From an uncultured archaeon (lineage in GTDB: Archaea; Iainarchaeota; Iainarchaeia; Iainarchaeales; DATDZZ01), in contig CAYJVY010000014.1 in the NCBI GenBank assembly GCA_964373795.1, forward strand, positions 1-25,245: 25,245 nt of DNA, in the 5' to 3' direction. Position 1 is the stretch's first letter, and each line of letters opens with the position of its first letter. A program made the position numbers and the translations under genes. The notes under the pieces are model-generated. The model was not told where the DNA came from. It worked only from the letters and a program-made list of their open reading frames with translations, and did no database searches. Below are positions 14 through 20,043 of this stretch, one piece after another.

Positions 14-3000
14 ATGGTTGGAGAAGTAGAGGAATCTGAGAGAGCTGGAAAAAAGCATTTAATTTTTAAATGTCAGAACTGTCCTTATGGAAAATCAATT
101 GCTGATGACAAGGCTTGCAGGTTTCATGTACTAGCGTTTGCTTTACAGCAAACCACTCCTGACATAATTATTTTGTATGACTTGTATGAAAGAGTTTACG
201 ATGAAAATCAAACAAAGCTTTTAGTTGAATTAGCTGACCTTCTTCAAAGATTTAAAACTTATGGATTTGATTCACTTAAATATTTAGTTGATCAAGAAAA
301 AGAATTAACTGATTTAAAGGGAGCTAGATGGGGAGTAATAGAGTCAATTACTGCTGATGTTCCTAGATACGATCCAATTACTGCTTTTTTAATGCTTTCA
401 CAAGAATTAAAAAAAGAAACAACCAGAGTTGGAGACTTAAAAAATGCAGGCAGTTCTTATGGAGTGGCTTATCTTAATACTTTGCGCACAATTTACGGTT
501 TTTACAAAGAAACTGATTTAATTAAAGATTTATCTGAATACTTAAAGCAATTAAGTAGGGTTCCTCCAGTAAATGAATTGTATAAAAAGTATTTTGAAGC
601 TCAGTTAAAGCCTTCTTTTATTGCTTCAACTTTAATGTTTCCTGAAGACGAGCAACTTGAAATAAAAGATTCTTATTATGTGAAAGGAGCTAATATTCAA
701 ATTTTTAAGCATCCAAATCTTGCAGAGCATTTGTATTACGTTAATGCTCCTGAATATTCTTTTAATGCTGAAAAATTTTTGTTGTGGAGTCAAGCAAGAG
801 AAATTGTTGGAGCTTATACTCCTGGAAAGGATTCAGTTTCTTTAGAGGGAAGGTCAAGAAAATATTATGAAAGAAGATATGAATCAGTTATTGCAAAGCT
901 TGCTCAAGAACAAGGAATTAGTTTAGATCCTTTAGAGTTAAGAGAATTAGCAATTGTTGTTGCTCGTTATACAGTGGGTTATGGAATTTTGGAAATCTTG
1001 TTAAGTGATAGGGAAACGATTAGGGAAGAATTGCCTGAAGAAGAAAAAACAAAGCTTGGAAAAATTTTTGAAGCAAAAGAAAAACAGTTAAAGAAAAAAT
1101 CTAAAGGAGATGAAGACATTGAATTAAGTTCAGAAGACCTTGGCCCTAAAGGAATTATTCAAGACATTTATTTAGATGCTCCTGTGGGAAAAAAACCTAT
1201 TTACCTTAATCACAGTGAATTTGGAATTTGTAAAACAAATATTTTGTATTCAGAAAACGATGCAAAAAAACTTGCAACAAAAATTCGAACAATTTCTGGA
1301 AGGCCTTTAGATGAAACTCATCCTGTATTGGATTATGATTTGAAAGACTTTGATTCCAGAGTTGCAATAATTCAAGAACCTTTATCTCCTGATGGACTGG
1401 CTTTTGCTTTTAGATTGCATGCATTAAATCCTTGGACTATTTCAAAGTTTTTAGATCCAGCTAATGCAATGCTTAATCCTCTTGCAGCAGGTTTTCTGTC
1501 TTTTTTTGTTTCAGTTAATTCAACTATTTTGGTTTGTGGTTCAAGAGGAAGTGGTAAAACTTCTTTGCTTGGAGCATTAATGCTTGAATTAGATCAAGAT
1601 ACTCGAATTCTTGTGCAAGAAGATAGTGTTACAGGAGATTCTTTTATTGTTGTAGAACGCAATGGACAAATAGAGAAAGCAACTGTTGGAGAATTAATTG
1701 ATGAATTAATTGAAAAATACGGAGCTGAAAAAATTAATGAAAGAGAAATTTTGCATGCAAACCCTGAAGGCGTGAGAGTTTTCTCTTTAAACAAGGCCAA
1801 TAAAACTGAATTAAAACCTGTTTCACAATTCATGAGGCACAAGGTTTCAAAAGAATTATTTGAAGTGAAAACAAGAAGTGGAAAAAAAATTAAGGTTACA
1901 GGAGATCATTCCTTATTTACTTTGAGAGATAATTCAGTTCAAGCAATTAAAACAAAAGACATTGTTCCTGGAAGCTTTATTGCTACTCCGAGAAATTTAC
2001 CTTTAAACAATTCTGAAATTAACTCAATTAATTTGTTTGAAAAATTGATTGAATTAGAGAATGGTTTCATTGCAGGAAAAGAATTGCCAAAATTCATTGA
2101 AATGAATTGGAGTGAAATTAAAAAAACTGCTTTTGAATTAGGGTATAAAAAAGTCGCTTTTAGTGCTTGGAAAAGAAAAGGGTTTTTGCCAATAAAAGTT
2201 TTAAGGAAATTGAATTTCTCTCCTCTTGATTTGAGAAAACTTGTATTTAAATTAGACAGAAAATCAAAGCAAATTCCTGTTGAAATAATTTTGTCAAAAG
2301 AGTTTTTGAATTTTATTGGTTTGTGGTTAGCTAATGGTTCTTTTGATTCAAAGTATGCAGTAATTATTTCAACTCCTGGGTGCGAGAATTTAATTCAAAG
2401 AGTTGCACAGCAGTTTGGTTTAAAGGCCAGAAAGCATTCTGATTCTTTTTCAACAATTATTTCGAATACTGGTTTGAATTGGTTTTTGAAAACTGTTTTA
2501 GATTTGAATGGAAATGCTTATACTAAAAAAATTCCTAAATGGATTTTTAATTTATCTAAAAATCAAATTGCAGAAGTATTGAAAGGAATTTTTACAGGAG
2601 ATGGATTTACATCGAAATACGAAGTTGGAATTAGTTTAGTTTCAAAAAAATTAATTCAAGAAATTGAATTCTTTTTACTTGTGTTTGGAGTTCTTTCAAG
2701 GAAAAGATTTGTGGAAAGAGATAAAACATTTAATTTAAGAATTAGCGGAATTAAAAACATTCAAAAATTTAGGCAAGAAATAGGTTTTTTACTTGAATAC
2801 AAATCAAGACAACTTGACTTAATTTGTTCCAGGATTTCAACTCACGATGTAACTGATGTAATTCCTTTCAGTGTTGAAGAAAAAACTTTAATGCAAGGCG
2901 TTTTAACAGAGTTTAATAAGCATGACTATGTTTCAAGAAATTATTCCATTGGAAGAGAAAAATTCAAGAGCATGATTCAAACAATTTCAAATGAAGAAAC

Positions 3001-4087
3001 TCTTTTTCAGGACTTCAAAAGTCTTGCTTTTTCAGATATTTTTTGGGATGAAGTTTCAAGTATTAAATCGCTTGGAACGACTCAAGAATTTGTTTACGAC
3101 TTCTCTGTTCCAGGAAGTGAAAACTTTATTTGTGAAAACATTGTTGCGCATAACACTTTAGAATTGCCTGTTGAATTTATGAAGGATTTGAATTATAATG
3201 TTCAAAGCTTGAAAACTAGAAGTCCTTTAGCTGTAAGTGTTAGTGAAACAGAGGTTGCTCCTGAAGAAGCTTTGAGAACTTCTCTGCGTTTAGGTGATTC
3301 AGCAATTATTTTAGGAGAAGTTAGATCTAAAGAAGCAAAAGTATTGTATGAAGCAATGAGGGTTGGAGCAGCTGGTTCAACTGTAATGGGAACAATTCAT
3401 GCTGACTCAGCTTATGCTGTTTGGGATAGAGTTGTTCACGATTTAGGAGTTCCAACAACTTCTTTTAAGGCAACTGATTTAGTTATTGTTGCAAAACCTT
3501 TCAGGCATAAGCTTTCAAAGAAAAGAGTTAGAAGAATTTCTGAACTAACTGAAGTAAAAAAGCATTGGAATGAAGATCCAGATAAAGAAGGAGGTTTGCT
3601 TCGTTTAATGGAATACAATGCGAAAGAAGATGAACTTGAATTGCTTGAAGACAATGTAAAGGATTCGGATTTGTTTAAAAAAGTCAGCAAAGAAACAGGC
3701 ATGTCTTATGATGAAATTTGGGATGAAATTAATTCTAGAGGAGAGTTTAAGAAATTCTTGCCTGAATTAAATGTTTTATACAATTCTTCTGGTGGAGGAA
3801 AAGAATTAGGTTTAACTAAAGATCAAAAAAAATTTATTTTAGATTTAAAGTCAAGGTTTGCTTCAATTAATCCAGTGCCTAAATCTGATTTCTTGTTGGA
3901 AGCAAAATTCACTATTGCAGCTCACAACAAGTATTTGGTTTTAAGAGAAGAACAATTAAATGTTACTAGAGGAAAAATTGATTACAATCAATTGATTGTT
4001 GATTGGAAGGACTGGGTTATAAAAAATTTATTAGAGCAAGCAATTAAGGAAAGAATTATTGTTGAAAGAGAGAAACACAAAATGTGA
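14..4087 (+). CDS. FlaI/PilB/VirB11-GspE superfamily secretion (type IV pilus-like) ATPase, interrupted by an in-frame intein; true start may lie upstream of the window
   Basis: 1357-codon ORF. The extein carries Walker A (GSRGSGKTS), an Asp box restored across the intein (RILVQED|TLELPVE), a Walker B-like motif (DSAIILGEVRSKEA) and a His box (STVMGTIHADSA), in the order typical of these hexameric ATPases. A FlaJ/TadC-like membrane gene follows directly. The frame is open from nt 2 to the ATG at 14, so the N-terminus may be truncated by the window edge. Confidence 0.9.
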   Translation: MVGEVEESERAGKKHLIFKCQNCPYGKSIADDKACRFHVLAFALQQTTPDIIILYDLYERVYDENQTKLLVELADLLQRFKTYGFDSLKYLVDQEKELTDLKGARWGVIESITADVPRYDPITAFLMLSQELKKETTRVGDLKNAGSSYGVAYLNTLRTIYGFYKETDLIKDLSEYLKQLSRVPPVNELYKKYFEAQLKPSFIASTLMFPEDEQLEIKDSYYVKGANIQIFKHPNLAEHLYYVNAPEYSFNAEKFLLWSQAREIVGAYTPGKDSVSLEGRSRKYYERRYESVIAKLAQEQGISLDPLELRELAIVVARYTVGYGILEILLSDRETIREELPEEEKTKLGKIFEAKEKQLKKKSKGDEDIELSSEDLGPKGIIQDIYLDAPVGKKPIYLNHSEFGICKTNILYSENDAKKLATKIRTISGRPLDETHPVLDYDLKDFDSRVAIIQEPLSPDGLAFAFRLHALNPWTISKFLDPANAMLNPLAAGFLSFFVSVNSTILVCGSRGSGKTSLLGALMLELDQDTRILVQEDSVTGDSFIVVERNGQIEKATVGELIDELIEKYGAEKINEREILHANPEGVRVFSLNKANKTELKPVSQFMRHKVSKELFEVKTRSGKKIKVTGDHSLFTLRDNSVQAIKTKDIVPGSFIATPRNLPLNNSEINSINLFEKLIELENGFIAGKELPKFIEMNWSEIKKTAFELGYKKVAFSAWKRKGFLPIKVLRKLNFSPLDLRKLVFKLDRKSKQIPVEIILSKEFLNFIGLWLANGSFDSKYAVIISTPGCENLIQRVAQQFGLKARKHSDSFSTIISNTGLNWFLKTVLDLNGNAYTKKIPKWIFNLSKNQIAEVLKGIFTGDGFTSKYEVGISLVSKKLIQEIEFFLLVFGVLSRKRFVERDKTFNLRISGIKNIQKFRQEIGFLLEYKSRQLDLICSRISTHDVTDVIPFSVEEKTLMQGVLTEFNKHDYVSRNYSIGREKFKSMIQTISNEETLFQDFKSLAFSDIFWDEVSSIKSLGTTQEFVYDFSVPGSENFICENIVAHNTLELPVEFMKDLNYNVQSLKTRSPLAVSVSETEVAPEEALRTSLRLGDSAIILGEVRSKEAKVLYEAMRVGAAGSTVMGTIHADSAYAVWDRVVHDLGVPTTSFKATDLVIVAKPFRHKLSKKRVRRISELTEVKKHWNEDPDKEGGLLRLMEYNAKEDELELLEDNVKDSDLFKKVSKETGMSYDEIWDEINSRGEFKKFLPELNVLYNSSGGGKELGLTKDQKKFILDLKSRFASINPVPKSDFLLEAKFTIAAHNKYLVLREEQLNVTRGKIDYNQLIVDWKDWVIKNLLEQAIKERIIVEREKHKM
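1625..3154 (+). mobile_element. Intein (510 codons) with LAGLIDADG homing-endonuclease domain, inserted in the ATPase Asp box
   Basis: Block A is SVTGDSFIVV (Ser1) and block B is KVTGDHSLF (TxxH). The LAGLIDADG motifs are FIGLWLANGSFD (2312-2347) and LKGIFTGDGF (2579-2608). Block F is VYDFSVPGSENFI and block G is ENIVAHN, followed by Thr+1 (3155-3157). Conceptual excision restores ..ILVQEDTLELPVE.., the canonical Asp box. Confidence 0.85.
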
Positions 4088-4099
4088 CAAGGTTTTTTT

Positions 4100-6526
4100 A
4101 TGCGTAAAAAAGAATTTGACTTTGATTTTTCTGAAGGAAAAATTCCTTCAAAAAATTTTTATGGAAAAATTTCTCTTCCAGGAGAAGAGGAAGAAGTTGA
4201 ATTTACTCCTCAAGAAAAAATTGGAAACCATCCCTTTGTTGTTTACTGTAAAAGTGTTTTCAAAATTTTTGGAAGCCTGGGAAAAGGAGCAAAGTTTTCC
4301 GATGAATACACTGAAGCAGTTGAATTTCTTAGATGGGATTTAAAAGCAGAAGAATTGACTTCAACAATTAGTGCTACAATGATTGTTTCACTAATTGTTT
4401 TTGGCTTGCTTGGAGTAATTTTGTATTTGTTTTCTCCTGTAATGCCTTTTTTGCTTGGCTTTACTAAAAACTTTTATTTATCTGTTGCTTACTTGTTTGG
4501 CCCTTTAATTGGAATTAGTTTGGGGTTAACATTTATTGTGCAAACATTTCCTTTAAGGGAAGCAAAAAAAGAACAAATTCAAGCATTGACTTATATTCCT
4601 GAAATAGTTGGATACATGATAATGCAAATGAAGTTAGTTCCAAATTTAGAGAAAGCCACAAGGTTTGCAGCAGAACATGGAAGAGGAAAAATTGCTCGCG
4701 ATTTAGGGGAAATTGTTTGGAAAGTAAATCATGGAGCTTATTCAACTGTTGTAGAAGGATTAGAGGATTTACGAAAAAGATGGGGAAGTTATTCAAGTGA
4801 ATTAAAAGAAGCTTTAATGAATATTCGTGCAAGTGTTTTAGAAGGAAATGAAGAAAAAAGATTTGCTTTACTGGATAAAACCATGGATTCGATTTTGAAT
4901 TCCATTAGAGACAAAATGGAGAACTATGCTCGCGGCTTGTCTCAGCCTTCAACTATTTTGTTTTACGTTGGAATTTTATTGCCTTTAATTTTAATCATTA
5001 TTTTACCTGTTGGAAGCTCTTTCACTGGCCAGGCTTTAGCTAGGCCTGAAATTTTAATTTTAATTTACAATATTGCTTTGCCTGCTTTTGCTTTTATTTT
5101 TTCTTTATATGTTATTTCTCAAAAACCTCCAACCTATGAATCTCCTAAAGTAGAGGATTCCCATCCAGAAATTTTAAGCGAATATAATTTGCGTAACAAG
5201 AAATATAAAATGGTTTTAGGAGAAGCAAGAGATAAAGGAAAACTTGTAAGAAAAGGAATTGTTTTAGATGTTAGATTAATTGCAGTTCTCATTTTAATTG
5301 CAGGATTTGGATTGTCGTATTTTGTTTCAACGCAAGGAATTCCTCCAAAGTTTTTATTAAGTGGAGATAAAGGGGAAGACATTGCGCAAATTATTCCGGC
5401 AGATAAACAGGTTTCAGATGTATTGCTGAGAAGCAGTTTACCTTTGGATTATTTTGAAGTAAACGGAACTCTTTTCAAAAAACTTACTGATAAAGGTGCA
5501 ACAGTTGAAAAAGCTCAAGAATTAATGCTGATTGAGAAAAACAATTTTTTCTTTAAACCTGAAAACGATGTTTCGCCTTTTTTATTAATTTTTGGAATTC
5601 TAATTACTCTTAGTTTAACTGTTTCTTTTTTTCTATACTTTTCAAATATTTATAAAAGAAAGGTTCAACAAGATTACATGCAAATTGAATCAGAATTCAA
5701 AGAATCTCTTTACGTTTTAGCTTCGCGTTTAGGAGAAAACAAGCCAATTGAAGAAGCTTTAAGGCATACAAAAGAATTTCTTCCAAATTTGAAAATAAGT
5801 GAAGCATTGTTTGGAAAAATTTTATACAATGTTTCAGTAAACAATTTAACTCTGCGAGGAGCATTATTTGATCCACAAGTCGGAGCATTAAAAGGAAATC
5901 CTTCAAGCATGATTAGAACTTCAATGAAGTTATTAGTTGACTCAGTTGAATTAAGTGTTGAACAAGCTTCTAGTACTTTAATTAATTTGTCAATGCAGTT
6001 AAGAAACTCTGAAAAGGTTTCAAAGCTTTTAACTGTTTTAGTTAGCGAGATTTCTTCCACAATGTATACAATGACTATATTCATTGCACCAATTGTTTTA
6101 GGAATTACTACTAGTTTGCAAAAAGTTGTAATGGTTACTCTTGCACAAATTTCTTCTGCTCCTGGAGGAGGAACAGGAATAACTGATGCTTTAACTGATT
6201 TAGATACTTCAGCTCTTTCAAGTGTTGGAGCAGGAGGCGTTGGATCTGCAATTAGTTCAATTAAGTCTCTAGGATCAAGTGTTTCAGGAGTAGGAGTTGA
6301 TCCAACTGTTTTAAGGTCTTTAGCTGATCCAACTCAATTTTTAGTAATAGTAGCTATTTACGTAATTGAATTAGTAATCATTATGAGTTTTTTCACTTCA
6401 ATGATGGAAGAAGACAATAAATTAAAATTCAGAATAGGGTTGGCAAAGGCCTTGCCTGTTGCAGTAATTATTTTCATTGCAAGCCTATATTTTGCAAACA
6501 CAGTTGTAGGCGGATTCTTCGGATAG
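4100..6526 (+). CDS. FlaJ/TadC/PilC-like polytopic membrane platform protein (enlarged, 808 aa)
   Basis: Starts 12 nt after the ATPase stop. Clusters of hydrophobic helices alternate with two soluble helical segments (approx aa 150-285 and 515-650), as in the duplicated T2SS-F/FlaJ architecture. The assignment rests on architecture and synteny, not on a named motif. Confidence 0.7.
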   Translation: MRKKEFDFDFSEGKIPSKNFYGKISLPGEEEEVEFTPQEKIGNHPFVVYCKSVFKIFGSLGKGAKFSDEYTEAVEFLRWDLKAEELTSTISATMIVSLIVFGLLGVILYLFSPVMPFLLGFTKNFYLSVAYLFGPLIGISLGLTFIVQTFPLREAKKEQIQALTYIPEIVGYMIMQMKLVPNLEKATRFAAEHGRGKIARDLGEIVWKVNHGAYSTVVEGLEDLRKRWGSYSSELKEALMNIRASVLEGNEEKRFALLDKTMDSILNSIRDKMENYARGLSQPSTILFYVGILLPLILIIILPVGSSFTGQALARPEILILIYNIALPAFAFIFSLYVISQKPPTYESPKVEDSHPEILSEYNLRNKKYKMVLGEARDKGKLVRKGIVLDVRLIAVLILIAGFGLSYFVSTQGIPPKFLLSGDKGEDIAQIIPADKQVSDVLLRSSLPLDYFEVNGTLFKKLTDKGATVEKAQELMLIEKNNFFFKPENDVSPFLLIFGILITLSLTVSFFLYFSNIYKRKVQQDYMQIESEFKESLYVLASRLGENKPIEEALRHTKEFLPNLKISEALFGKILYNVSVNNLTLRGALFDPQVGALKGNPSSMIRTSMKLLVDSVELSVEQASSTLINLSMQLRNSEKVSKLLTVLVSEISSTMYTMTIFIAPIVLGITTSLQKVVMVTLAQISSAPGGGTGITDALTDLDTSALSSVGAGGVGSAISSIKSLGSSVSGVGVDPTVLRSLADPTQFLVIVAIYVIELVIIMSFFTSMMEEDNKLKFRIGLAKALPVAVIIFIASLYFANTVVGGFFG

Positions 6527-6534
6527 GGAAAGAA

Positions 6535-6999
6535 ATGTTTAACGAGAAAGGAATTGAAACAATTGGGTTTGAAATAATTGTTGGAGTAACAATTGCTTTT
6601 TTTATTTTATTAATTGTCTTAGGTGCAATAAATTATTTTGAAGGTTTGAGGTATCAAGTTAGCTCGCAATTATTTGTTGACGGATTAAAAGCAGCAATTA
6701 ATTCTCCTAATGGAAAAATTGTTGAAAAATCAAACATTGGGTTAAAAGCAGGAAAATATTCAACTAGGTTTCTTTCACTTCAAACTGGTTTGCAAGAAAA
6801 ATGTTTAAGATTCAAGCCTGCGAGTTCTAAAAATGTCGAAGTCTCAAGTGATTCAAGTTTAGTTGAATTAAAACAAGACTTTACTTCAAAGGTTTATTAT
6901 AGGTGTTTTACAAAAGGATTTGAAGATTCTTTTGAACCCTTTGATTGTGAAATAAGTTGCTATATTTCCATTGGCAATGCATTTGAAGAATCTTCCTAA
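6535..6999 (+). CDS. Pilin-like exported protein (class III-type signal peptide), distant member of a Cys-containing family
   Basis: N-terminus MFNEKG|IETIGFEIIVGVTIAFFILLIVLG: a short charged leader, Gly, then ~25 hydrophobic residues. The ATG lies 8 nt after the platform-gene stop. It has 4 Cys (EKCLRF, YRC, FDCEISC), positioned like those of the two downstream paralogues. Confidence 0.6.
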   Translation: MFNEKGIETIGFEIIVGVTIAFFILLIVLGAINYFEGLRYQVSSQLFVDGLKAAINSPNGKIVEKSNIGLKAGKYSTRFLSLQTGLQEKCLRFKPASSKNVEVSSDSSLVELKQDFTSKVYYRCFTKGFEDSFEPFDCEISCYISIGNAFEESS

Positions 7000-7098
7000 A
7001 ACCTGAAAATTCGTGTAAAATGTTCAGACAATGCTTTCCAAAAATTATTTATATATGTTTGAAGTTGTTTGTTACAGTGAATTTAAGGAGCTTTGAAA

Positions 7099-7641
7099 AT
7101 GATTTTTAAAATGGATTCAAAAGGTCAAAACCAAGTATTCCAATTATTAATTGGAGCAATTATTGCTTTTGCTGTTTTAGCTATTTTGCTTGGATTACTT
7201 CCAAACATTAATATTGGGAAAAATCCTTTAGATGAAGCAAAAAGATTAGTTAAAGATGCAGCTAATAATCCTTCTTCGGCTTTTTCAAGTGAAAGAGTTA
7301 CATTTGATAATGCTAAATCATTAGTTCCAAGAACTATTGCAGTTGGAAGCGGAGGAGTAATAACTGAAGATCAATTATGTCTTTTCACTGGTTCAAGATT
7401 TGATGAAGGAAGTGGATTTGAATTTCGAGGAGACAAACCTTCAGGAATATATTATACTGGTTCGCCTAGAGAAGTTAAATTAAGAATTATTTGTGACAGG
7501 CCAAGCGCTTTAGAAAAAGGATTAAAAGATAATTTCCCAGGAGAAACATTTACTTTAGGTGGAGCTTCTTGCGGAAATGATTGTGAATCAAGTGGAAGAG
7601 ATACTTGTTGTGTAATAGTAGTAGTTGGAAGAGACGAATAA
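7099..7641 (+). CDS. Pilin-like exported protein with KGQ class III signal peptide; 6-Cys family
   Basis: AAGGAG at 7085-7090 precedes the ATG at 7099 (the track start 7093 is a TTG two codons earlier). MIFKMDSKG|QNQVFQLLIGAIIAFAVLAILLGLL is a textbook archaeal prepilin N-terminus. It has 6 Cys, including the C-terminal CGNDCESSGRDTCCVIVV. A T-rich tract follows the stop. Confidence 0.65.
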   Translation: MIFKMDSKGQNQVFQLLIGAIIAFAVLAILLGLLPNINIGKNPLDEAKRLVKDAANNPSSAFSSERVTFDNAKSLVPRTIAVGSGGVITEDQLCLFTGSRFDEGSGFEFRGDKPSGIYYTGSPREVKLRIICDRPSALEKGLKDNFPGETFTLGGASCGNDCESSGRDTCCVIVVVGRDE

Positions 7642-7643
7642 AT

Positions 7644-7671
7644 CTCTTTCTTTTTTTAATTTTTTATTTTC
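7644..7671 (+). terminator. T-rich terminator tract after the 7099-7641 pilin-like gene
   Basis: CTCTTTCTTTTTTTAATTTTTTATTTTC follows the stop directly, and the next gene has its own promoter box. Confidence 0.4.
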
Positions 7672-7684
7672 ACTTGAAACTTAA

Positions 7685-7693
7685 ATTTAAATA
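7685..7693 (+). promoter_or_regulatory. TATA-like box ATTTAAATA upstream of the 7720 gene
   Basis: Ends 27 nt before the ATG at 7720, and there is no Shine-Dalgarno sequence. This is consistent with a leaderless mRNA. Confidence 0.4.
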
Positions 7694-7719
7694 GTTGTTT
7701 TCTCTATAAAGTATTTTGA

Positions 7720-8313
7720 ATGAAGTCAAATCAATTAATTGTATTTGTTGCAGTGTTTGTTTCAACCTTGCTAGTAATTCTTTTCTTTACAGGTTTTTTT
7801 AATCCTTCAAAGCCTTTAGAAGAAGACATTGAAGTAAAATCTTTTGAAGAAGCAAGAGAAGTGTTTGATTCCTCTCCAAATATAGTTGCAAGAAAGCAGT
7901 TAAATGCAGTTTTAAGTTCTCCAGAATATCATGTAAATAATTTTTTAGTGTATTCTGAAAAAATTCTTTTTTTTCCAGGAGACGAAATTGATTCAAAAAA
8001 ATTAGCTGAGGATTTGCCTTTGAATTCAAACCAGTTTTGTTTAATGAAAGGCGAATTACAAGATTCTTCTTTTGAATTCAAGGAAAACAAATTAGTTTTA
8101 AATCAAAAAACAGGCACTTTAATTGCAAGAGTTTCAGTTGATTGTTCTCCTGCAAATAAATTAGAGGAAAGGCTTTCCTCTTATGGATTAAATTTTTCCA
8201 CTTCCTTGAATGCAAGAAGCTCTAATACTGTTTGCGGAGAAAAATGCTTGCAAGGAGAAGAACTTTGTTGTGTAGTGATTTTAAGAAAAGAAAATCAATC
8301 TCCTATGCCTTAA
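7720..8313 (+). CDS. Exported/membrane-anchored paralogue of the 7099-7641 protein; 6-Cys family
   Basis: N-terminal hydrophobic helix MKSNQLIVFVAVFVSTLLVILFFTGFF, with no Gly before it, so it is a signal anchor or an atypical prepilin. The globular part aligns by eye with 7099-7641: QxCL, FEF, CxxPxxLE, CGxxCx7CCV[IV]. It has its own A/T box at 7685-7693. Confidence 0.55.
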   Translation: MKSNQLIVFVAVFVSTLLVILFFTGFFNPSKPLEEDIEVKSFEEAREVFDSSPNIVARKQLNAVLSSPEYHVNNFLVYSEKILFFPGDEIDSKKLAEDLPLNSNQFCLMKGELQDSSFEFKENKLVLNQKTGTLIARVSVDCSPANKLEERLSSYGLNFSTSLNARSSNTVCGEKCLQGEELCCVVILRKENQSPMP

Positions 8314-8333
8314 AGCAATAATTAAATACTTCT
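8312..8333 (+). promoter_or_regulatory. A/T-rich promoter box (BRE/TATA-like), copy 1: AAAGCAATAATTAAATACTTCT
   Basis: The AATTAAATA core ends 24 nt before the ATG at 8352. The box is 21/22 identical to 9369-9390. Confidence 0.5.
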
Positions 8334-8351
8334 CTAGAATAATATTTACTT

Positions 8352-8519
8352 ATGCTTGCATTGCAAAAATTGTTGAAAGAAGAAATTGCTCAAGGCAGTT
8401 GGAATAATGTTTATTTACTTGTAGTGTTTGCAATTGCTGCTTTGCTTGTAATTGGATTAATTAAACCAATGTTTAGACAGTCTGCTTCAATTGTTAGAAC
8501 TTTTAATGTAACTAAGTAA
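8352..8519 (+). CDS. 55-aa single-helix mini-protein, candidate short (Flp/Epd-size) pilin; absent from the ORF track because it is under 60 aa
   Basis: ATG at 8352 to TAA at 8517-8519. The product is MLALQKLLKEEIAQG|SWNNVYLLVVFAIAALLVIGLIKPMFRQSASIVRTFNVTK: a charged leader, Gly, a hydrophobic helix and a short tail. It is preceded by the same 22-nt A/T-rich box as the pilin gene at 9408. Confidence 0.45.
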   Translation: MLALQKLLKEEIAQGSWNNVYLLVVFAIAALLVIGLIKPMFRQSASIVRTFNVTK

Positions 8520-8542
8520 ATTAGTGATTTACTATTTTTTTG

Positions 8543-8902
8543 CTACTTTATGTATGAAACGTTTTTTCTATTTTTGAATTCTTTGTCTCCAGTTACAAAG
8601 GCGTAATTTTTTTCTAATGCATAAGTGTATCCGACTGCATCGAAAAATGAAATATTTTCTTTTTTGCTGTCTTTCCAAAAATGTGTTGCTTTGATTAATA
8701 TATTCAATTCAACGTTTACACAATATTGCTTTAGTTTTTCAAGCCAGTGGTTTGCAATAGGCGTGTTATATTCTTTATACAATATGCCATAAAATTCTGC
8801 CATTGTGATGTTTGTTATAACAAAATCATACTTTAAAAGGTCTGCAAAATTAGTGTTTCCATTGTATATTTCCATTAGTGCATACGTATCTAGACAATTC
8901 AC
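8543..8902 (-). CDS. vapC: PIN-domain ribonuclease toxin (VapC-like)
   Basis: GTG start 4 nt after the antitoxin stop. Acidic residues fall in the PIN pattern: LDT (Asp5), MAEF, FFDAV, TGDKEF. About 119 aa, paired with an AbrB-type antitoxin. Confidence 0.8.
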   Translation of the reverse strand: MNCLDTYALMEIYNGNTNFADLLKYDFVITNITMAEFYGILYKEYNTPIANHWLEKLKQYCVNVELNILIKATHFWKDSKKENISFFDAVGYTYALEKNYAFVTGDKEFKNRKNVSYIK

Positions 8903-8906
8903 ATAA

Positions 8907-9128
8907 TCACTTTAGGTATTTACTTGTATTTTTTCTATTTTCTTTTAATATCTCTATTGTTGGTTTGCTGAATTTTCCTGCGCCAAACATTTCAGTTAGA
9001 GGATTTTCCTTCTTTTTTACTTCAATTAAAACCTTTTGATTTTCATGTAATCCTTTATCTTCCATTTCTATTTTTGAAATTATTATCCCAAATGAGTTTC
9101 CCCATTTACGTATTTTTGCTTCAAACAA
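8907..9128 (-). CDS. vapB: AbrB/SpoVT/MazE-fold antitoxin (VapB-like)
   Basis: N-terminal KIRKWGNSFGIIISK matches the swapped-hairpin signature (kWGNSxgvrIPk). 73 aa, TTG start, immediately upstream of the PIN gene. Confidence 0.8.
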   Translation of the reverse strand: MFEAKIRKWGNSFGIIISKIEMEDKGLHENQKVLIEVKKKENPLTEMFGAGKFSKPTIEILKENRKNTSKYLK

Positions 9129-9140
9129 GTTAAACCACTT

Positions 9141-9155
9141 GTATAATTATTATAC
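9141..9155. promoter_or_regulatory. Perfect 7-1-7 palindrome GTATAAT-T-ATTATAC, candidate VapB operator
   Basis: Lies between the vapB start (9128) and a TATA-like TTTTATATAC on the minus strand (9161-9170). AbrB-type antitoxins typically autoregulate through such sites. Confidence 0.4.
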
Positions 9156-9368
9156 TTACAGTATATAAAATGTTCTCTCAATGTAAATCCATATTAAGAG
9201 TATTTTTTAAGGCTTTTTCTGAATTCGTTAAATGTCTGAAAGACTATTTATAAACTGGACAATAATATTTGTTTTTTTGATTTAGTTTGATTTTCTTGCG
9301 ATTATTATTGTGGCATATTTGTAACGCAGGTTTCTTTGAAATAAGCTGTTGTTTAGGAATCTTGGAAC

Positions 9369-9390
9369 AAAGCAATAATTAAATATTTCT
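9369..9390 (+). promoter_or_regulatory. A/T-rich promoter box, copy 2: AAAGCAATAATTAAATATTTCT
   Basis: The AATTAAATA core ends 22 nt before the ATG at 9408. The spacing fits a leaderless or near-leaderless archaeal transcript. Confidence 0.5.
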
Positions 9391-9407
9391 AATTCTTTTA
9401 GTATTAC

Positions 9408-9959
9408 ATGTTTTCTTCTAAAGGTCAAACCTCAATGCCTTTTGAGTTATTAATTGCAGTTATTTTAATGGGGTTTGTAATGTTTGTTGGATTAATTGCT
9501 TTGGATACTTTAAAGAAAGCTGAATTGCAGGGACAGATTCAAAAACAGTTAGAGGAAATAGTTCAAAAAGTTGAAGCAGTGAGTCAAACTCATGTTCAAC
9601 AAAACTTGTCTGTAACAGTTCATAAAGCTGGAAAAAATTCTCAAATAAAAATTTTTACTGATACTAGTCAAAGAAGGTGCAGTATTTTTTGTGGTTCACA
9701 GAAAAGAACGTGTACTTTAATTAGTTATACTGCTGAAGGATTTAATCCAATTACTTTGTGTTTAAATATTTCTGCTACAACTGTTTTTGGTTCACAGTCA
9801 AGTACTGGGGCATGTGTTAATAGAGACATTGCTGAAGAAGAATTAGTTTTAGTTGATTGGAGAACAGATGGAGTTTTAGAAGGAAAATATATTTTGGATT
9901 CTCCTCAAACTCTTTTGAAAAGTGAAGTGCCAACTATTTGTGCTTACAAGAAAAAGTGA
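9408..9959 (+). CDS. Pilin-like exported protein with KGQ class III signal peptide (first gene of a 4-gene pilin-like operon)
   Basis: MFSSKG|QTSMPFELLIAVILMGFVMFVGLIAL. 6 Cys in the globular part. A conserved 22-nt A/T-rich box ends 18 nt before the ATG. Confidence 0.65.
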   Translation: MFSSKGQTSMPFELLIAVILMGFVMFVGLIALDTLKKAELQGQIQKQLEEIVQKVEAVSQTHVQQNLSVTVHKAGKNSQIKIFTDTSQRRCSIFCGSQKRTCTLISYTAEGFNPITLCLNISATTVFGSQSSTGACVNRDIAEEELVLVDWRTDGVLEGKYILDSPQTLLKSEVPTICAYKKK

Positions 9960-9964
9960 AACAT

Positions 9965-10630
9965 ATGACTATGATTGGATTTGTTTTAAGTAAAATGAAT
10001 TTATTAATTCTTGTAATTGCTTTGTTTACAATTATTGCTTTTTTCACTTTTTCTTTAGGAGATGTTGTATTACAAAATCAAGCAAAACTAATTATTGAAA
10101 GGTATACTAAGACAATTAATACTTCTCTTTCTTCTTCAACTTATTGTGATAGAGTTGTATTAAATGTTCCAAGGTATTTAACTGGTTTTGGTGGAAACAG
10201 ATTATTTTACAAGTTAAAGATTTCAACTGTTGACACTGATAAAGATCCTTTTAATGGAAATTTTTTGGTTTTCTCTGTGGTGGATAGAGGTAAGGAAAAT
10301 ATAATAATTAATGCTGGGTCAATTAAAACTGATTCTCAAGTTCACTTGTATTCAGTTGAGGGAGGAACTAATTGGAGTAAAGCCAGAAACGAAGAAGGGG
10401 AAAGCATTGAATTAGATCCTCAGTCTTCTACTCCAGTAGAATCATTTGTTTTAGTGAAAAAAGTTGTGGAAGGCAAAAAAAATGTATTCATTGTGCCTTG
10501 TTCTTTCGGATCAACTGTTGCATTAATTTGTGAAGCAGAACTTGAATCTTTAATTGAATCCCCAATTGGAAGTGAATTGAAAACGCAGTTTGGAGATGCA
10601 TCAAATTTTGCTTGTGGATTTAATCCTTGA
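9965..10630 (+). CDS. Pilin-like/exported protein with N-terminal hydrophobic helix
   Basis: I prefer the ATG at 9965, 5 nt after the upstream stop. The track start 9938 is a TTG overlapping the upstream gene. N-terminus MTMIG|FVLSKMNLLILVIALFTIIAFFTF; 4 Cys. Confidence 0.5.
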   Translation: MTMIGFVLSKMNLLILVIALFTIIAFFTFSLGDVVLQNQAKLIIERYTKTINTSLSSSTYCDRVVLNVPRYLTGFGGNRLFYKLKISTVDTDKDPFNGNFLVFSVVDRGKENIIINAGSIKTDSQVHLYSVEGGTNWSKARNEEGESIELDPQSSTPVESFVLVKKVVEGKKNVFIVPCSFGSTVALICEAELESLIESPIGSELKTQFGDASNFACGFNP

Positions 10631-10640
10631 AGTGGGAAAA

Positions 10641-11171
10641 ATGTTTGAAAAAAAATTGAATTGGAAAGGGTTTATTGGCCCAATTGGAGATGATTTGCCT
10701 AGTTTGATTCCCTTAATTTTTGCTTTAATTATTTTTTTCTCTGCTTTTACTTCTTCATTGAATTCATTTAATTCCGAGAATTCTGCGATTAGCGTTAAAT
10801 TAGAGGCTTTAAAAATTTCTAGAACTTTAAGAGGAAATGGTTTTGTTGAAAATTTTGAACAATTTCAAAAAACTTGTGAAACAGTTAAAAATAGTGGAAT
10901 AAAATTTCAAGCAGGCTTAGTTGAATTCAAAGATGTAACTTCTTTTTCTTCTAAAAATGATATTAAATTTATTGAACCATTTGGTTCACCTCCAGTTGGA
11001 GTAAACTCTGAGGATTTCAAGTTTGTTTGTTTTTCAAATTCAGTTTCAGAAGAAGACAAGCAAGAAAACCTTCCTCCAAATGCTTTCAGCATTAACTTGG
11101 TTTACCCAATTGCTTTACAGTATAATACTGTTGTTCTTCCAGTTCATTTGGTGGTGACTGCATGGACTTAA
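10641..11171 (+). CDS. Pilin-like/exported protein with KG-hydrophobic N-terminus
   Basis: I prefer the ATG at 10641, 10 nt after the upstream stop. The track start 10590 overlaps the upstream gene. N-terminus MFEKKLNWKG|FIGPIGDDLPSLIPLIFALIIFFSAF; 2 Cys. Overlaps the next gene by 10 nt. Confidence 0.5.
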   Translation: MFEKKLNWKGFIGPIGDDLPSLIPLIFALIIFFSAFTSSLNSFNSENSAISVKLEALKISRTLRGNGFVENFEQFQKTCETVKNSGIKFQAGLVEFKDVTSFSSKNDIKFIEPFGSPPVGVNSEDFKFVCFSNSVSEEDKQENLPPNAFSINLVYPIALQYNTVVLPVHLVVTAWT

Positions 11172-11953
11172 ATTCTAGAGGGCAAGCAGCTGTATTTGAT
11201 TCATTGTTTATGTTAAGTGTTGTAACTTCTTTAGCAGTTTTATTATTTGTTTTTTCAAACAGTTATGGAAATTCAATTAACGATTCGTTGTTAAGAGAGT
11301 ATTCGACTGATTTTGTAACTGATGCATTGAAAACAATTCTTTATAGCAGTACTACTAGAACTTCCACTAATTCTCTTTCAATTGATTTAGCTAGAAATCC
11401 GGGAAAACAAGAAGTGGATTATTTATTGGCTGTAATTAAAGAAGATTTTTCTTCTTCGCAAGAATTAAGTAATGATTCAAAAATTGTTTTGAAAAACAAT
11501 GTTGAAAAAATTATGATTCCAATGCAAGACCAATTTGATTACATGTTTTTTATTGCAGTTGAAAAAAACTCTGTAATTGATTATTCTTATTTTTTGCTTT
11601 ACAAATCAGAGTTTTTATGTAGCAATCACCCTTGTCCTGATGAATTGCCTTACTCTGTTCCTGGAACAGCTGATATTAAAGCAGACGATCCTGCGCATAG
11701 ATTTTATTTATGTAATTTAGATCCAAGTAATAGGCTTACCTCTGCTCAATTAAAAGAATTCATTTTCAGATTAGGCGGCATAAATCAATCCAGTGTTTCA
11801 ATTCTTTTATACAAGCCTAGCACTGGGGTTGCAGAAACAACTAATGGAGTTATTTCTTTAGCTGTTTGGAATTCAACTTTTATTCCTGAAAATCAATTAA
11901 ATGTTTTAAAATGTAATGAATTTGATGAAGCTGTTTCTCTTTCTTCTCCTTAA
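11162..11953 (+). CDS. Pilin-like exported protein with RGQ class III signal peptide
   Basis: MDLNSRG|QAAVFDSLFMLSVVTSLAVLLFVF. 4 Cys. Its start overlaps the upstream gene, suggesting translational coupling. Confidence 0.65.
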   Translation: MDLNSRGQAAVFDSLFMLSVVTSLAVLLFVFSNSYGNSINDSLLREYSTDFVTDALKTILYSSTTRTSTNSLSIDLARNPGKQEVDYLLAVIKEDFSSSQELSNDSKIVLKNNVEKIMIPMQDQFDYMFFIAVEKNSVIDYSYFLLYKSEFLCSNHPCPDELPYSVPGTADIKADDPAHRFYLCNLDPSNRLTSAQLKEFIFRLGGINQSSVSILLYKPSTGVAETTNGVISLAVWNSTFIPENQLNVLKCNEFDEAVSLSSP

Positions 11954-12729
11954 ATTTTTTCTTTTTTCTTTACAGGTTTTTTTGTTTTATCTGTTTCAGT
12001 TTTAGGCATTTCAGGCAAGTCTTCTAATTCTTCTAAGTCTTCATCCATTTCTTCTTCTGCATCTAATTCTTTATCTAAATCAGTGTCAATGTCTTCAAAT
12101 TTTTCATTTAAAGAAATGTCTTCTAGATTAGTGTTCAATTCTTCTGTTTTTTTAATTGGTTTTTTTACTAAAACAGGTTTTACTGGTTCGGGTTTTACAG
12201 GAGGCCTTCTTTGATCAACTTTTTCGCTTGGCTTTTCTAATTGATTGAAAACGTTTTCAGCTATTTCTTGTAATTCGCTTTTCGATGGCTCTCTATTATG
12301 TTCTTCTCTGAATTGCCTTAAATGTCTTGAAGTTAGTTCTTGTTTTTTATTTTCTACTCCTTGTTTTTGTGAAGCTTCTATTTCTTGTTCTTTCAGCATT
12401 TGTTTAAATAATTCATCTGACATTGATTCTGCTTCTTTTTGATTAATTGTTTCCTCTAATTTTTTCATTAAGTCTTTGACTTCTTCTTCTTTTGATTTTG
12501 GTTTTGGTTGTCCAAAAATTGCTCCAAGTAATTGTTCAATAAAGGATGGCTTTCTTTCTTCAGGTTTCCATTTGGGCCTGGAAACTATTTCAGATTCTTT
12601 TAAAATGTCAATTGGTTTGGTTTCAGGTTTTGGTTGTTCAATTGGAGGTGAAACCTCTTTTGTTTTTTCTTCTAATTCTCTGTATTTTCGTAAAACCTTT
12701 AATCTTCTAGGTAGATCTTCTTCAGGCAA
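11950..12729 (-). CDS. Lys/Glu/Pro-rich low-complexity protein of unknown function
   Basis: 259-codon ORF with a TTG start preceded by AAGGG. Highly charged (KPEPVKPVLVKKPIKK, acidic DEDLEELEDLPE tail), with one short hydrophobic patch (FIEQLLGAIFG). The opposite-strand ORFs here look like shadow frames. Confidence 0.5.
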   Translation of the reverse strand: MPEEDLPRRLKVLRKYRELEEKTKEVSPPIEQPKPETKPIDILKESEIVSRPKWKPEERKPSFIEQLLGAIFGQPKPKSKEEEVKDLMKKLEETINQKEAESMSDELFKQMLKEQEIEASQKQGVENKKQELTSRHLRQFREEHNREPSKSELQEIAENVFNQLEKPSEKVDQRRPPVKPEPVKPVLVKKPIKKTEELNTNLEDISLNEKFEDIDTDLDKELDAEEEMDEDLEELEDLPEMPKTETDKTKKPVKKKEKI

Positions 12730-12805: not shown

Positions 12806-13384
12806 ATGGCATTAGATTTAATTCTTAATTTAGTTAACTCAATTATAAGGCTTTTATTGCTTTCACTTTTATTATTTGTTCCTGTAACTGTTTTTGCTTT
12901 AATTGTTTCTTTTCTGAAAAAAAAGCTTCAAGAAAAATATAGTTTTTCATGGATGTATGCAACCTCTATTTCGACTTTGATTTTAATGATTGTATTTACT
13001 GTAACTTTTTATTTTGGGTTTTATTTCTCAATTGTAAGTGAAGTAAACCTTGGACAAATTAGGCCTGAACTTGCAAGCCAAGAATATCCTTTGCTTCCAC
13101 AGTTTTTATTTACTGCAGAAAGCCCTGTAATTAGTTTCTTGTTTTTTTACTTGCTTCTTTTCTTGAAAAGAATTATAGTAGCACTTGTTTTAACTGGTTT
13201 AATTTTACCTCTTCAATTTATTGGTTCGCTTGTTTTAAATTACTTGAATCAAAGATTTGAGAAAACGAATTTTTTAATTAAATTTGGTTTAACTTGTTTT
13301 GCAGTTTCATTTTTAACTGTTTTAATTCTGTTGTTATTTGACTGGATTTTAGCTGGCATAATTTACTTTGTTTTATTGTATTAA
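12806..13384 (+). CDS. Polytopic membrane protein of unknown function (192 aa)
   Basis: ATG at 12806, about 20-30 nt downstream of the A/T box CTTTTATAATA. There are several long hydrophobic segments (LLLLSLLLFVPVTVFALIV, ISTLILMIVFTVTFYFGFYF, ISFLFFYLLLFL, FAVSFLTVLILLLF). The upstream part of track ORF 12476-13384 overlaps the minus-strand gene and is probably non-coding. Confidence 0.55.
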   Translation: MALDLILNLVNSIIRLLLLSLLLFVPVTVFALIVSFLKKKLQEKYSFSWMYATSISTLILMIVFTVTFYFGFYFSIVSEVNLGQIRPELASQEYPLLPQFLFTAESPVISFLFFYLLLFLKRIIVALVLTGLILPLQFIGSLVLNYLNQRFEKTNFLIKFGLTCFAVSFLTVLILLLFDWILAGIIYFVLLY

Positions 13385-13515: not shown

Positions 13516-13535
13516 AATATCTTTTGAGGATATTT

Positions 13536-13865
13536 ATGTTGGATATCTTTTATTTTCAAGGAATTCCTGTAAAGACTTTTACTTCAAAGGCTTTACTGGA
13601 ATTAGAGGAACATGGTTTTGACTTGTTTGATGTTGTGGAATTTTTAGAGAATGGATTTGATTGTGAAAGAAGTACTAGAAAATCAAATATTTTTGAGAAA
13701 TGTGTTGTTAGAGGAAAAAAGGTTGTTAAAATTGTTATAGAAAAACTGGAAAGCAAGAATTTGAATAATTATTGGAGTGTTAGACATATTGGAGTTTTTA
13801 TTTCAAGGAAAAATATTTTAGTGAAAGATTATGAATTTATTGAAAGAAGAAATTCAGTGCATTAA
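13536..13865 (+). CDS. Small protein, putative toxin partner of the downstream Zn-ribbon/AbrB protein (family uncertain)
   Basis: GAGGA lies 5 nt before the ATG at 13536. It overlaps the downstream gene by 35 nt in a two-gene TA-like layout. It shows only a weak by-eye resemblance to MqsR/DUF4258-type small toxins. Confidence 0.4.
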   Translation: MLDIFYFQGIPVKTFTSKALLELEEHGFDLFDVVEFLENGFDCERSTRKSNIFEKCVVRGKKVVKIVIEKLESKNLNNYWSVRHIGVFISRKNILVKDYEFIERRNSVH

Positions 13866-14160
13866 GGGGCATTTAGCTAAACCTAAAACCTTTAATGTTC
13901 AGGGTTTTGAGGTTAGAGGTTGGCAGTGCAATAAATGTGGTGAAATAGAGTATTCTGATGATATTCAAAAATATTTGATTTGGAATAAATTGAGAAAGAA
14001 TCCTTTAAGAGTTAAGGTTGGAGTTTTAGGTAGTTCTGCTATTATTCGTTTGCCTAAAGAATTTCTTAGACTTTTTAACTTGAAAAAAGGCAGATTTGTT
14101 GAATTAGTTCCTGAATCAATGAATAAAATTTCTTTAACAGTAAATGAAAAGCGTTTTTAG
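13831..14160 (+). CDS. Zinc-ribbon + AbrB/SpoVT-domain DNA-binding protein, putative antitoxin
   Basis: The N-terminus has CxxxH...CxxC (CIKGH .. CNKCGE), like YgiT/MqsA-type zinc ribbons. The C-terminus VGVLGSSAIIRLPKEFLRLFNLKKGRFVELV matches the AbrB/SpoVT swapped-hairpin pattern. Confidence 0.6.
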   Translation: MNLLKEEIQCIKGHLAKPKTFNVQGFEVRGWQCNKCGEIEYSDDIQKYLIWNKLRKNPLRVKVGVLGSSAIIRLPKEFLRLFNLKKGRFVELVPESMNKISLTVNEKRF

Positions 14161-14256: not shown

Positions 14257-14322
14257 AAAAGTGGCAAAAGTGGCTGAAAAGTGTGTTTAAGTTTGTTAAG
14301 TGAATTAAGGGGAATTAAAGTG
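14257..14322 (+). repeat. Phased AAGTG repeats in the promoter/5' leader of the giant surface-protein gene
   Basis: AAAAGTGGC occurs twice in tandem (14257-14274), then GAAAAGTGTG. AAGTG recurs at 14298 and 14318, the last overlapping the GTG start. A TATATATTA box lies at 14241-14249. Confidence 0.35.
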
Positions 14323-20011: not shown

Positions 20012-20043
20012 ACAACAAAAAATTTATAATTAGATCACTGTTA

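Follow-up and report, generated by a model that had tools for sequence, protein, structure and literature searches.

A type IV pilus-like gene cluster conserved across Candidatus Iainarchaeota, with an intein-bearing ATPase and co-conserved giant proteins

Among described archaeal surface filaments, the Epd or System 1 pilus has the architecture closest to that of the gene cluster analysed here, which occupies positions 14-11953 of a contig of 25,245 nt (CAYJVY010000014.1, in its full length referred to as the window). In the Epd pilus the bulk pilin is a short protein devoid of a globular domain, and numerous minor pilins are encoded in Epd loci (preprint 10.64898/2026.04.22.720090). For DPANN archaea, type IV pilus (T4P) islands were reported which combine a FlaI/TadC-like core with signal-peptide-bearing proteins without detectable similarity, read as diverse pilins, near surface proteins (PMC6393860), and Diapherotrites genomes were stated to ‘have type-IV pili’ (PMC8561730). 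The type IV pilus genes of Diapherotrites have already been noted in this superficial manner (PMC8561730; PMC6393860). The islands of Makarova, Wolf and Koonin from 2019 (PMC6393860, Fig. 2A) follow the same concept as the present locus and provide a general example of it; the paper contains no definition of an Iainarchaeota-wide system, of its eight families, signals and short pilin, of its membrane/giant protein module or of its intein. The archaeal censuses of 2016 (PMC4858521) and 2026 (preprint 10.64898/2026.04.22.720090) do not describe the system and do not mention Iainarchaeota, and we found no paper in the literature which dissects the Iainarchaeota pilus system.

The window is AT-rich (ca. 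31% GC), carries nearly all genes of its first 19 kb on the plus strand and originates from a metagenome-assembled genome (MAG) of Candidatus Iainarchaeota (Diapherotrites, DPANN), a sparsely studied lineage of very small archaea, in agreement with the divergent clade postulated in an initial annotation made from the DNA letters. All elements listed there were recovered at their positions, and its designation as a T4P-type locus is borne out by a T2SSE ATPase, a T2SSF platform and subunits that combine conserved signals of class III-like type with predicted structures of pilin shape. The region 14-11953 is thus confirmed as a type IV pilus-like surface-filament gene cluster, which is real and strongly conserved in Iainarchaeota. 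A lineage-specific type IV filament (TFF) machine, conserved across Candidatus Iainarchaeota, is the best explanation of the locus and in our judgement a probable one. The core of the locus comprises the following features (a slash in a signal motif marks the presumed cleavage site):

14-4087, plus strand: gene of a secretion-type (FlaI/GspE2/CpaF-like) ATPase, 1357 amino acids (aa), with Pfam matches to T2SSE, Intein_splicing and LAGLIDADG_3
1625-3154 (aa 538-1047), plus strand: class 1 intein with LAGLIDADG homing endonuclease, 510 aa (Intein_splicing 1.4e-26, LAGLIDADG_3 1.9e-9)
4100-6526, plus strand: platform protein of the T2SSF family, 808 aa, recognised by Pfam matches of homologues and hydropathy
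6535-6999, plus strand: p1, prepilin-like, 154 aa, encoded immediately behind the platform gene in all cases
7093-7641, plus strand: p2, prepilin-like, 182 aa, probable start at 7111 (MDSKG/Q)
7720-8313, plus strand: p3, divergent p2 paralogue, 197 aa, recognised by alignment with p2-like genes of the related loci L021 and L053
8352-8519, plus strand: p4, short pilin-like protein without globular domain, 55 aa (family alignment)
9408-9959, plus strand: p5, prepilin-like, 183 aa
9971-10630 (reading frame listed from 9938), plus strand: p6, about 219 aa, likely true start at 9971
10641-11171 (reading frame listed from 10590), plus strand: p7, about 176 aa, likely true start at 10641
11162-11953, plus strand: p8, largest pilin-like protein, 263 aa

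The conservation of the locus was analysed by a search covering one genome per GTDB species, which revealed platform relatives in 190 GTDB species genomes; from these 190 relatives 80 related loci were analysed, and the window proteins were compared with all open reading frames (ORFs) of 83 loci by BLASTP. The loci include a complete 1.05-Mb Iainarchaeum chromosome and Ca. Forterrea, both of the phylum Ca. Iainarchaeota. Matches were obtained in 77 of the 83 loci for the ATPase as well as for p1, in 58 for p2, 48 for p4, 43 for p5, 41 for p6, 38 for p7 and 37 for p8, and, downstream of the pilin-like genes, in 26 for a membrane protein, 28 for a giant protein of 1534 aa and 15 for a K/E-rich protein. 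The lower counts are largely due to truncated contigs. Each of the 83 loci has a single platform gene. Across the roughly 40 loci with full coverage the genes are arranged as ATPase, platform, p1, p2, (second p2), p4, p5, p6, p7 and p8, followed by (a charged protein encoded on the minus strand), a membrane protein of ca. 180-190 aa and a giant surface protein of ca. 1500 aa. Inverted or split loci keep the modules ATPase-platform-p1 and p2...p8-charged-membrane-giant whole; in L029 and L077 the latter lies upstream in inverted orientation. In L012, L014 and L047 the giant gene comes next after p1, and a membrane-protein gene between them was detected in L012 and L047. The conserved unit runs past position 11953 and takes in the genes of the membrane protein (12806-13384) and of the giant protein (14281-18885).

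The ATPase matches T2SSE of Pfam with an E-value of 1.9e-14, above the family cutoff. Its Walker A (GSRGSGKT), Walker B (DSAIILGEVR) and His box (GTIHAD) motifs are intact and the Asp box is split by the intein; the Walker A/B, Asp and His motifs are conserved in an alignment of 53 orthologues. After splicing, the protein possesses the full set of nucleotide-binding motifs known from hexameric motors of the FlaI/GspE2/CpaF type. The best solved match of the spliced sequence is GspE2 of A. fulgidus (PDB 2OAP, 3e-24), followed by three CpaF entries, the first of them the second-best relative (3e-19), and by the fifth-best match, Sulfolobus FlaI (4IHQ/4II7, 7e-16). These alignments cover only the core of N-terminal and C-terminal domain (query aa ca. 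381-741; E 1e-24 to 1e-15 for GspE2/FlaI), and compared to GspE2 and FlaI the ATPase possesses ca. 190-270 extra N-terminal residues with a CxxC...CxxH motif, a C-terminal extension and, in 14 of 67 complete orthologous copies (21%), inteins. No curated NCBIfam ATPase family was reached, as the models for FlaI (NF058587), TadA-type ATPases (TIGR03819) and BasE (NF053672) scored 112, 104 and 62 bits against cutoffs of 550, 373 and 1000, respectively. The initial annotation had described both core proteins as far larger than usual. The sizes themselves, 847 aa for the ATPase without intein and 808 aa for the platform, are correct; the enlargement is a trait of the families and not a peculiarity of this genome. 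The 53 complete intein-free ATPase orthologues span 754-810 aa, with ca. 760 aa being usual, and the window copy attains 847 aa because of two private insertions at aa 336-382 and aa 750-780.

The N-terminal ca. 330 residues of the ATPase are family-specific. Their mean column identity is 69% (41 sequences), and neither a Pfam match (41 N-termini) nor a PDB match (profile) was found for them. In the 2026 census of TFF systems in archaea, such N-terminal domains of the ATPases are reported as subsystem-specific (preprint 10.64898/2026.04.22.720090). A C-x2-C-x11-C-x2-H motif is located inside this domain at nt 71-127 (aa 20-38). Cys20 and His38 are near-invariant (at least 90% of 41 orthologues), while Cys23 and Cys35 are retained in at least 60% of 53 orthologues. 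The motif is a possible zinc-binding site, which is placed differently from the tetracysteine motif of bacterial GspE/PilB.

The intein starts with Ser1 (Ser538), contains a block B TGDH and ends with His-Asn (Asn1047), followed by Thr at +1. Splicing residues, block B, the central endonuclease and the restoration of the host motif all correspond to a class 1 intein, and splicing is predicted from the sequence. Among the NCBIfam matches of the ATPase ORF are intein_Nterm (TIGR01445) and many models derived from intein-containing proteins. The insertion point is the Asp box, ILVQED/TLEL (here the slash marks the intein position), and excision restores ILVQEDTLEL in register with the intein-free orthologues. 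Inteins were found in the ATPases of L008, L016, L017, L021, L028, L032, L034, L057, L061, L066, L067, L069, L071 and L083. In 12 of these 14 orthologues, including L067 with two inteins, the same Asp-box site is occupied; the intein of L008 resides at another site near spliced position 594, and that of L083, whose position is not resolvable from the alignment, is not counted among the 12. This distribution indicates that homing into the Asp box of this secretion ATPase is either recurrent or of long standing. The GC minimum of the window lies at 2001-3000.

The window platform protein itself gave no Pfam match at E<=0.1 and no NCBIfam match. However, 12 of 16 aligned full-length homologues, which are 44-53% identical to it, match PF00482 (T2SSF), and the platform assignment therefore holds at the family level. 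The Pfam search thus detected T2SSE in the ATPase and T2SSF in the platform homologues only. Several database members of the family are annotated as T2SSF, and its 277 database relatives are mostly 765-790 aa long, the named ones belonging to MAGs of Candidatus Diapherotrites/Iainarchaeum. Hydropathy analysis indicated about nine hydrophobic segments. Two well-conserved cytoplasmic blocks (ca. aa 155-280 and ca. aa 520-650) correspond to the two T2SSF repeats; extra material is present as an N-terminal stretch of ca. 85 aa and as an insertion of ca. 150 aa (ca. aa 345-495) with additional transmembrane (TM) segments on either side. A Gly/Ser/Thr-rich loop at aa 681-745 is poorly conserved. Together with the family lengths, the extra regions show that the platform is large throughout its family.

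Conserved class III-type sites of the form [KR]G/Q, [KR]A/Q or G/F are found in seven small-ORF families, and homologues of the small ORFs are present in the related genomes. The five [KR]G sites quoted in the initial annotation (KG/I, KG/Q, KG/Q, KG/F and RG/Q) are present in the window. Per family, K/R occupies position -2 in 58/76 to 36/37 members and G/A position -1 in at least 42/48 members. At +1, Gln is found in the families of p1, p2, p4, p5 and p8 (66/76 to 59/59) and Phe/Tyr in those of p6 (41/41) and p7 (37/38). All eight pilin-like genes initially reported exist; one of them, however, is a decayed paralogue and another encodes a pilin of 55 aa without globular domain. The pilin globular domains had been described as unrecognisable, and they remained so in searches of Pfam, PDB sequences and Foldseek.

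The families are partly related to each other. The p1 signal reads N-x-[KR]G/Q-x-F..F.LLIGA (Gln at +1 in 66/76), and the protein contains four conserved Cys. The p2 N-terminus, [KR]G/QAFSVFKLLIAAVVA, has Gln at +1 in all 59 aligned copies, the window copy included, and p2 is often duplicated in related loci. Profile comparison characterised p1 and p2 as paralogues (hhalign 99.1% over 123 columns) and related p5 to both over the N-terminal ca. 72 residues (hhalign 97%). The p5 N-terminus reads [KR]G/QE[SA]APFELL[IV]AV, with Gln at +1 in 45/45 aligned copies including that of the window. As judged from the alignment, p3 is a degenerate p2 copy that lost the KGQ site; with p2 it has the Cys-rich C-terminus CCVVIL in common, and no alternative start was found in the DNA upstream of p3. 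The p6 family is characterized by M-L-G/F-[IT]-L-S-K-x-N-LLILV with a very short leader and Phe at +1 (Ser at +4 in 41/41), and the p7 family by a near-invariant [KR]G/F[IL]GPIGDDLPSLIPL in front of the hydrophobic helix. The N-terminus of p7 (10641-10720) is rich in Gly, Pro and Asp, which is unusual for a pilin, and its LPSL recurs in the C-terminal motif of the giant protein, either meaningfully or by coincidence. The p8 family begins with [KR]G/QAA[VI]TDA[LM]YFL and is small, with 152 representatives at E<=1e-3 among 1.84 billion proteins. In profile-profile comparisons, p8 shares only the signal region with the other small-ORF families, and p4, p6 and p7 are unrelated to the others. Overlaps and short gaps among p5-p8 suggest co-translation.

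AlphaFold2 models of p1 and p8 were built with family alignments. For p1 the model (predicted local distance difference test, pLDDT, 89.4; predicted template modelling score, pTM, 0.75) consists of a helix (4-56) followed by a seven-strand β domain, and for p8 (pLDDT 92.2, pTM 0.84) of a helix (5-60) followed by an α/β domain. Both predicted folds correspond to the ‘lollipop’ architecture of type IV pilins. No Foldseek match to the PDB at E<=1e-3 and no PDB sequence match of the profile was obtained for either protein; the profile search with p1 returned 32 matches.

The smallest subunit, p4, whose gene was found with an ORF threshold of 30 aa, is the best-conserved small ORF (median identity 53% in 48 loci). 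Its family displays the motif EE[KR]A/Q[SG]E[WF]xSVY, a hydrophobic helix and KPMFxQSQ, with a Glu next to an aromatic residue close to the mature N-terminus, and matches no Pfam or NCBIfam family. By analogy, p4 is a candidate for an Flp/EpdE-like bulk subunit, and its shortness and the missing globular domain make an Epd/Flp-like architecture likely.

The weak N-terminal matches of p5 to ComGE/GspH (E ca. 0.04) raise the question of a competence-type pilus which takes up environmental DNA, as proposed for ultra-small bacteria of the candidate phyla radiation, and supplies a reduced genome with nucleotides or genes. Many bacteria take up DNA via type IV filaments, and nucleotide scavenging is commonly assumed for ultra-small organisms. 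However, the p5 matches lie far below the cutoff and involve the hydrophobic helix only, and neither a ComEC/ComEA-like channel nor a DNA-binding protein was found in the window or the conserved locus. Moreover, the window carries genes for chorismate synthase and prephenate dehydrogenase, and the Diapherotrites reference genomes are credited with de novo biosynthesis of nucleotides and aromatic amino acids (PMC8561730). We therefore consider DNA uptake as the purpose of the machine improbable.

With the Epd/System 1 pilus, which is described from Methanococcus maripaludis and has been reported for some DPANN too, the locus shares a multi-gene cluster with one secretion ATPase and a platform, and a variety of pilins that bear a class III signal with Gln at +1. 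The short major pilin of Epd may have a counterpart in the 55-aa p4 with a [KR]A/Q site; no sequence homology of p4 to known pilin families was detected. Differences are substantial. The platform is encoded by one gene for 770-808 aa instead of two, the dedicated peptidase EpdA/EppA is absent in and near the locus, the ATPase has its own N-terminus of ca. 330 aa, and the conserved neighbourhood includes giant surface proteins and a multi-TM protein, unlike in Epd. The Tad/Flp pili are reminiscent of the locus in the CpaF-like ATPase core, the short pilin without globular domain, the adjacent Glu-aromatic pair near the mature N-terminus and several pseudopilin-like partners. Yet the locus contains no Flp (PF04964), TadE/F, secretin or RcpA-type component, the predicted cleavage motif of p4 is [KR]A/Q compared to G/xxxxEY in Tad/Flp, and Tad/Flp systems are bacterial whereas the host of the locus is an archaeon with a single membrane. 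No solute-binding domain as expected for a bindosome is present in any locus protein.

It might be argued that fast DPANN evolution has merely blurred a characterised pilus (Aap, Ups, bindosome or Epd) or an archaellum-type rotary filament, because FlaI is the best NCBIfam model for the ATPase core and GspE2 and FlaI are among the best PDB matches. The FlaI score nevertheless amounts to one fifth of the equivalog cutoff, in keeping with the non-archaellar nature proposed initially, and Pfam/NCBIfam scans of the window ORFs revealed no archaellin, no FlaC-H (FlaC-E, FlaF/G/H) and no A24/GxGD peptidase. Likewise, none of 140 pilin-family members matches a Pfam pilin, archaellin, Flp or TadE family or an archaellum accessory protein, and p1-p8 show no sequence similarity to any catalogued (Pfam/NCBIfam) pilin family. 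The single platform gene contrasts with the two-gene platform of System 1/Epd, and the unique, conserved N-terminus of the ATPase is of the kind that marks separate subsystems in the 2026 census. A strong match of all components to a characterised pilus was thus not obtained, with the bindosome and Tad/Flp models below cutoff and the pilin families unmatched. Archaellum, bindosome and Tad are excluded by curated criteria, and a disguised known filament appears very improbable.

The locus of the proposed TFF machine has three conserved downstream neighbours:

11950-12729, minus strand: K/E-rich protein, 259 aa, between p8 and the membrane protein, in the same position and orientation in 15 loci
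12806-13384 (reading frame listed from 12476), plus strand: multi-TM membrane protein, 192 aa (ca. 180-190 aa in the family)
14281-18885, plus strand: giant surface protein, 1534 aa, with Sec-type N-terminal signal and C-terminal TM anchor

The K/E-rich protein has no hydrophobic segment, no NCBIfam match and, in Pfam, only a sub-threshold match to Mer2, a coiled-coil-type family; it is probably cytoplasmic and may serve as regulator or scaffold. Cytoplasmic coiled-coil proteins are also linked to some haloarchaeal T4P systems (PMC4858521). The membrane protein, without Pfam or NCBIfam family match, is encoded in front of the giant gene in most loci; in the window a toxin-antitoxin-like pair separates the two genes (gap of ca. 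0.9 kb). The giant protein gave no match in Pfam (also for six orthologues), NCBIfam or PDB. The link between the filament locus and the adjoining giant surface protein, suspected initially, is substantiated by synteny in 28 related loci, the rearranged ones included. Upstream of the ATPase, 23 loci (L001 1-6391, L002 1-3434 and 21 others) encode a further family of giant proteins in divergent orientation; its members have at least 2000 aa, 2733-2878 aa in full length, with faint CarboxypepD_reg matches, and it is lost from the window because the contig starts at the ATPase.

The C-terminus of the giant protein (18790-18885) is composed of [FWL]-x-NLPS[LM]P[ES], a TM helix and a basic tail in 6/6 complete copies, the orthologues sharing this tripartite organization being those of L005, L006, L014, L038 and L047. 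It resembles a sortase/exosortase-type sorting signal; no catalogued CTERM domain matched. NLPSLPE was considered as a shared sorting signal and discarded, because in the loci examined it is confined to the giant-protein family, and there is therefore no evidence for a sortase-type system.

The tight synteny with the membrane protein and the ca. 1500-aa protein downstream, and with the protein of at least 2000 aa upstream in 23 loci, also forms the basis of the main rival interpretation, a pseudopilus/display role for the giant proteins. Here, a short machine similar to a type II secretion system (T2SS) or a bindosome would use a stoichiometric, periplasm-spanning stalk of seven pilins to position the giant proteins, pushing them out or holding them in or above the S-layer. 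In favour of such a stalk, seven distinct, mostly single-copy families in fixed order resemble GspG-K, ComGC-GG and minor-pilin sets rather than a homopolymer. The 2026 census moreover proposes that archaeal TFF machines are often functionalised for presenting other proteins (preprint 10.64898/2026.04.22.720090). On the other hand, the giant protein carries a Sec-type signal and a C-terminal TM anchor instead of a class III signal, the BasE score of 62 bits remains far from the cutoff of 1000, and the short Flp-like p4 is in keeping with a true filament. A T2SS-like secretion system is not known from archaea. Altogether, we rate the display machine as unlikely.

Several observations weigh against the proposed filament machine or against details of it. 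An A24 prepilin peptidase was found neither in the window nor within ca. 10 kb of the 80 related loci by Pfam and by motif plus TM searches. Equipped with a Sec signal and a TM anchor of its own, the giant protein formally does not depend on the machine. Deviations from the signal consensus occur in the window itself, as p1 has Ile at +1 (KG/I), p4 has Ile at -2, where its family has K/R in 42/48, and p3 starts with MKSNQLIVFV... without a KGQ cleavage site. For p4, p6 and p7 no relationship to any known pilin is detectable. The assignment of p4 as major subunit is opposed by the most canonical signal and frequent duplication of p2 and by the constant position of p1 beside the platform; p1 or p2 could instead be the bulk pilin and p4 a membrane accessory. 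Finally, the machine is known here from genes and models, and the filament, its expression and adhesion are predictions.

Peptidase genes are commonly unlinked in archaea (PMC4858521). As no A24 peptidase is linked to the locus, leader cleavage at the class III-type sites is assumed. The multi-TM membrane protein was considered as a minimal A24 peptidase or exosortase and rejected, since a conserved Asp pair, GxGD, Cys or His is missing from its alignment. A scan for G.[GH]D motifs combined with TM segments among all ORFs in 1.3 Mb of related loci returned two ORFs, neither of which is an A24 peptidase; one of them is weakly exosortase-like.

On this basis we propose a first scenario for the filament machine of Iainarchaeota: An unlinked A24-type class III signal peptidase would remove the leaders of the subunits, which the ATPase-driven platform would then lift from the membrane into the filament. 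Because of the absent globular domain, the Glu-aromatic pair and the best conservation, p4 would be the bulk subunit, a role held by EpdE in the Epd pilus of Methanococcus and by Flp in Tad pili. The paralogues p1, p2 and p5, which occur as single copies in fixed order, would act together with p6, p7 and p8 as minor pilins in assembly priming and at the tip. In adhering to surfaces or partner cells, the filament would work together with the giant surface proteins conserved alongside it. We thus infer an adhesion or cell-cell contact function.

DPANN archaea are abundant in groundwater and sediments, and their contact with cells and surfaces is known mainly from a few cultivated Nanoarchaeota and Nanohaloarchaeota. 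A filament locus with adjoining giant surface proteins is an obvious candidate for attachment to surfaces or partner cells, and for Iainarchaeota it provides a concrete parts list of motor, platform, seven subunit families with defined cleavage motifs, membrane partner and giant proteins. The locus adds a subsystem that the recent archaeal TFF censuses do not describe. Going one step further, it may represent a hitherto unclassified archaeal TFF subsystem, apparently widespread among Iainarchaeota, defined by a zinc-finger-like ATPase N-terminus, an enlarged platform encoded by a single gene, an Flp/EpdE-like pilin of 40 residues and six or seven minor pilins of novel fold, and structurally coupled to giants of 1500 and ca. 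2800 aa as a contact or attachment apparatus of a DPANN lineage; this more specific proposal is tentative, and we place it somewhat below an even chance. As an independent archaeal example of a short Flp/EpdE-like pilin, p4 is relevant to the hypothesis that bacterial Tad pili originated in archaea. In addition, the Asp box of a secretion ATPase is documented here as a repeatedly used site of intein insertion.

The window also carries the following genes:

8543-8902, minus strand: PIN-domain toxin (Pfam PIN 1.2e-5)
8907-9128, minus strand: small AbrB/SpoVT-like antitoxin, partner of the PIN toxin
13524-14160: DUF4258-like/AbrB-like pair
19241-20011, minus strand: PAC2-family proteasome assembly chaperone
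20401-21507, minus strand: 368-aa protein with N-terminal signal-like segment and C-terminal TM anchor
21584-22420, minus strand: prephenate dehydrogenase
22468-22800: MazF, with its antitoxin at 22773-23096
23041-23868, minus strand: PP2C-like phosphatase
23869-24942, minus strand: chorismate synthase

The PIN/antitoxin pair (8543-9128) interrupts the pilin block and is not part of the machine. A PIN and antitoxin pair is found at the same p4/p5 junction in L002/L003 (13582-14243, Pfam), and two-ORF pairs of similar size, recognised by placement and size only, occur there in L010 (ca. 7448-8067) and L013 (ca. 9894-10476). A minus-strand two-gene pair thus resides at the p4/p5 junction in at least four lineages; the window toxin has no detectable similarity to those of L002, L010 and L013. 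The window and the related loci are in general dense in toxin-antitoxin modules. Housekeeping genes lie on the minus strand downstream of the locus (19241-24942), and the aromatic amino-acid genes among them fit the comparatively complete metabolism reported for Diapherotrites. The 368-aa protein encoded in the same region gave no family match and is not conserved beside the pilus locus; it contains QDEFNKQV/QDEYNKQV repeats near its N-terminus.

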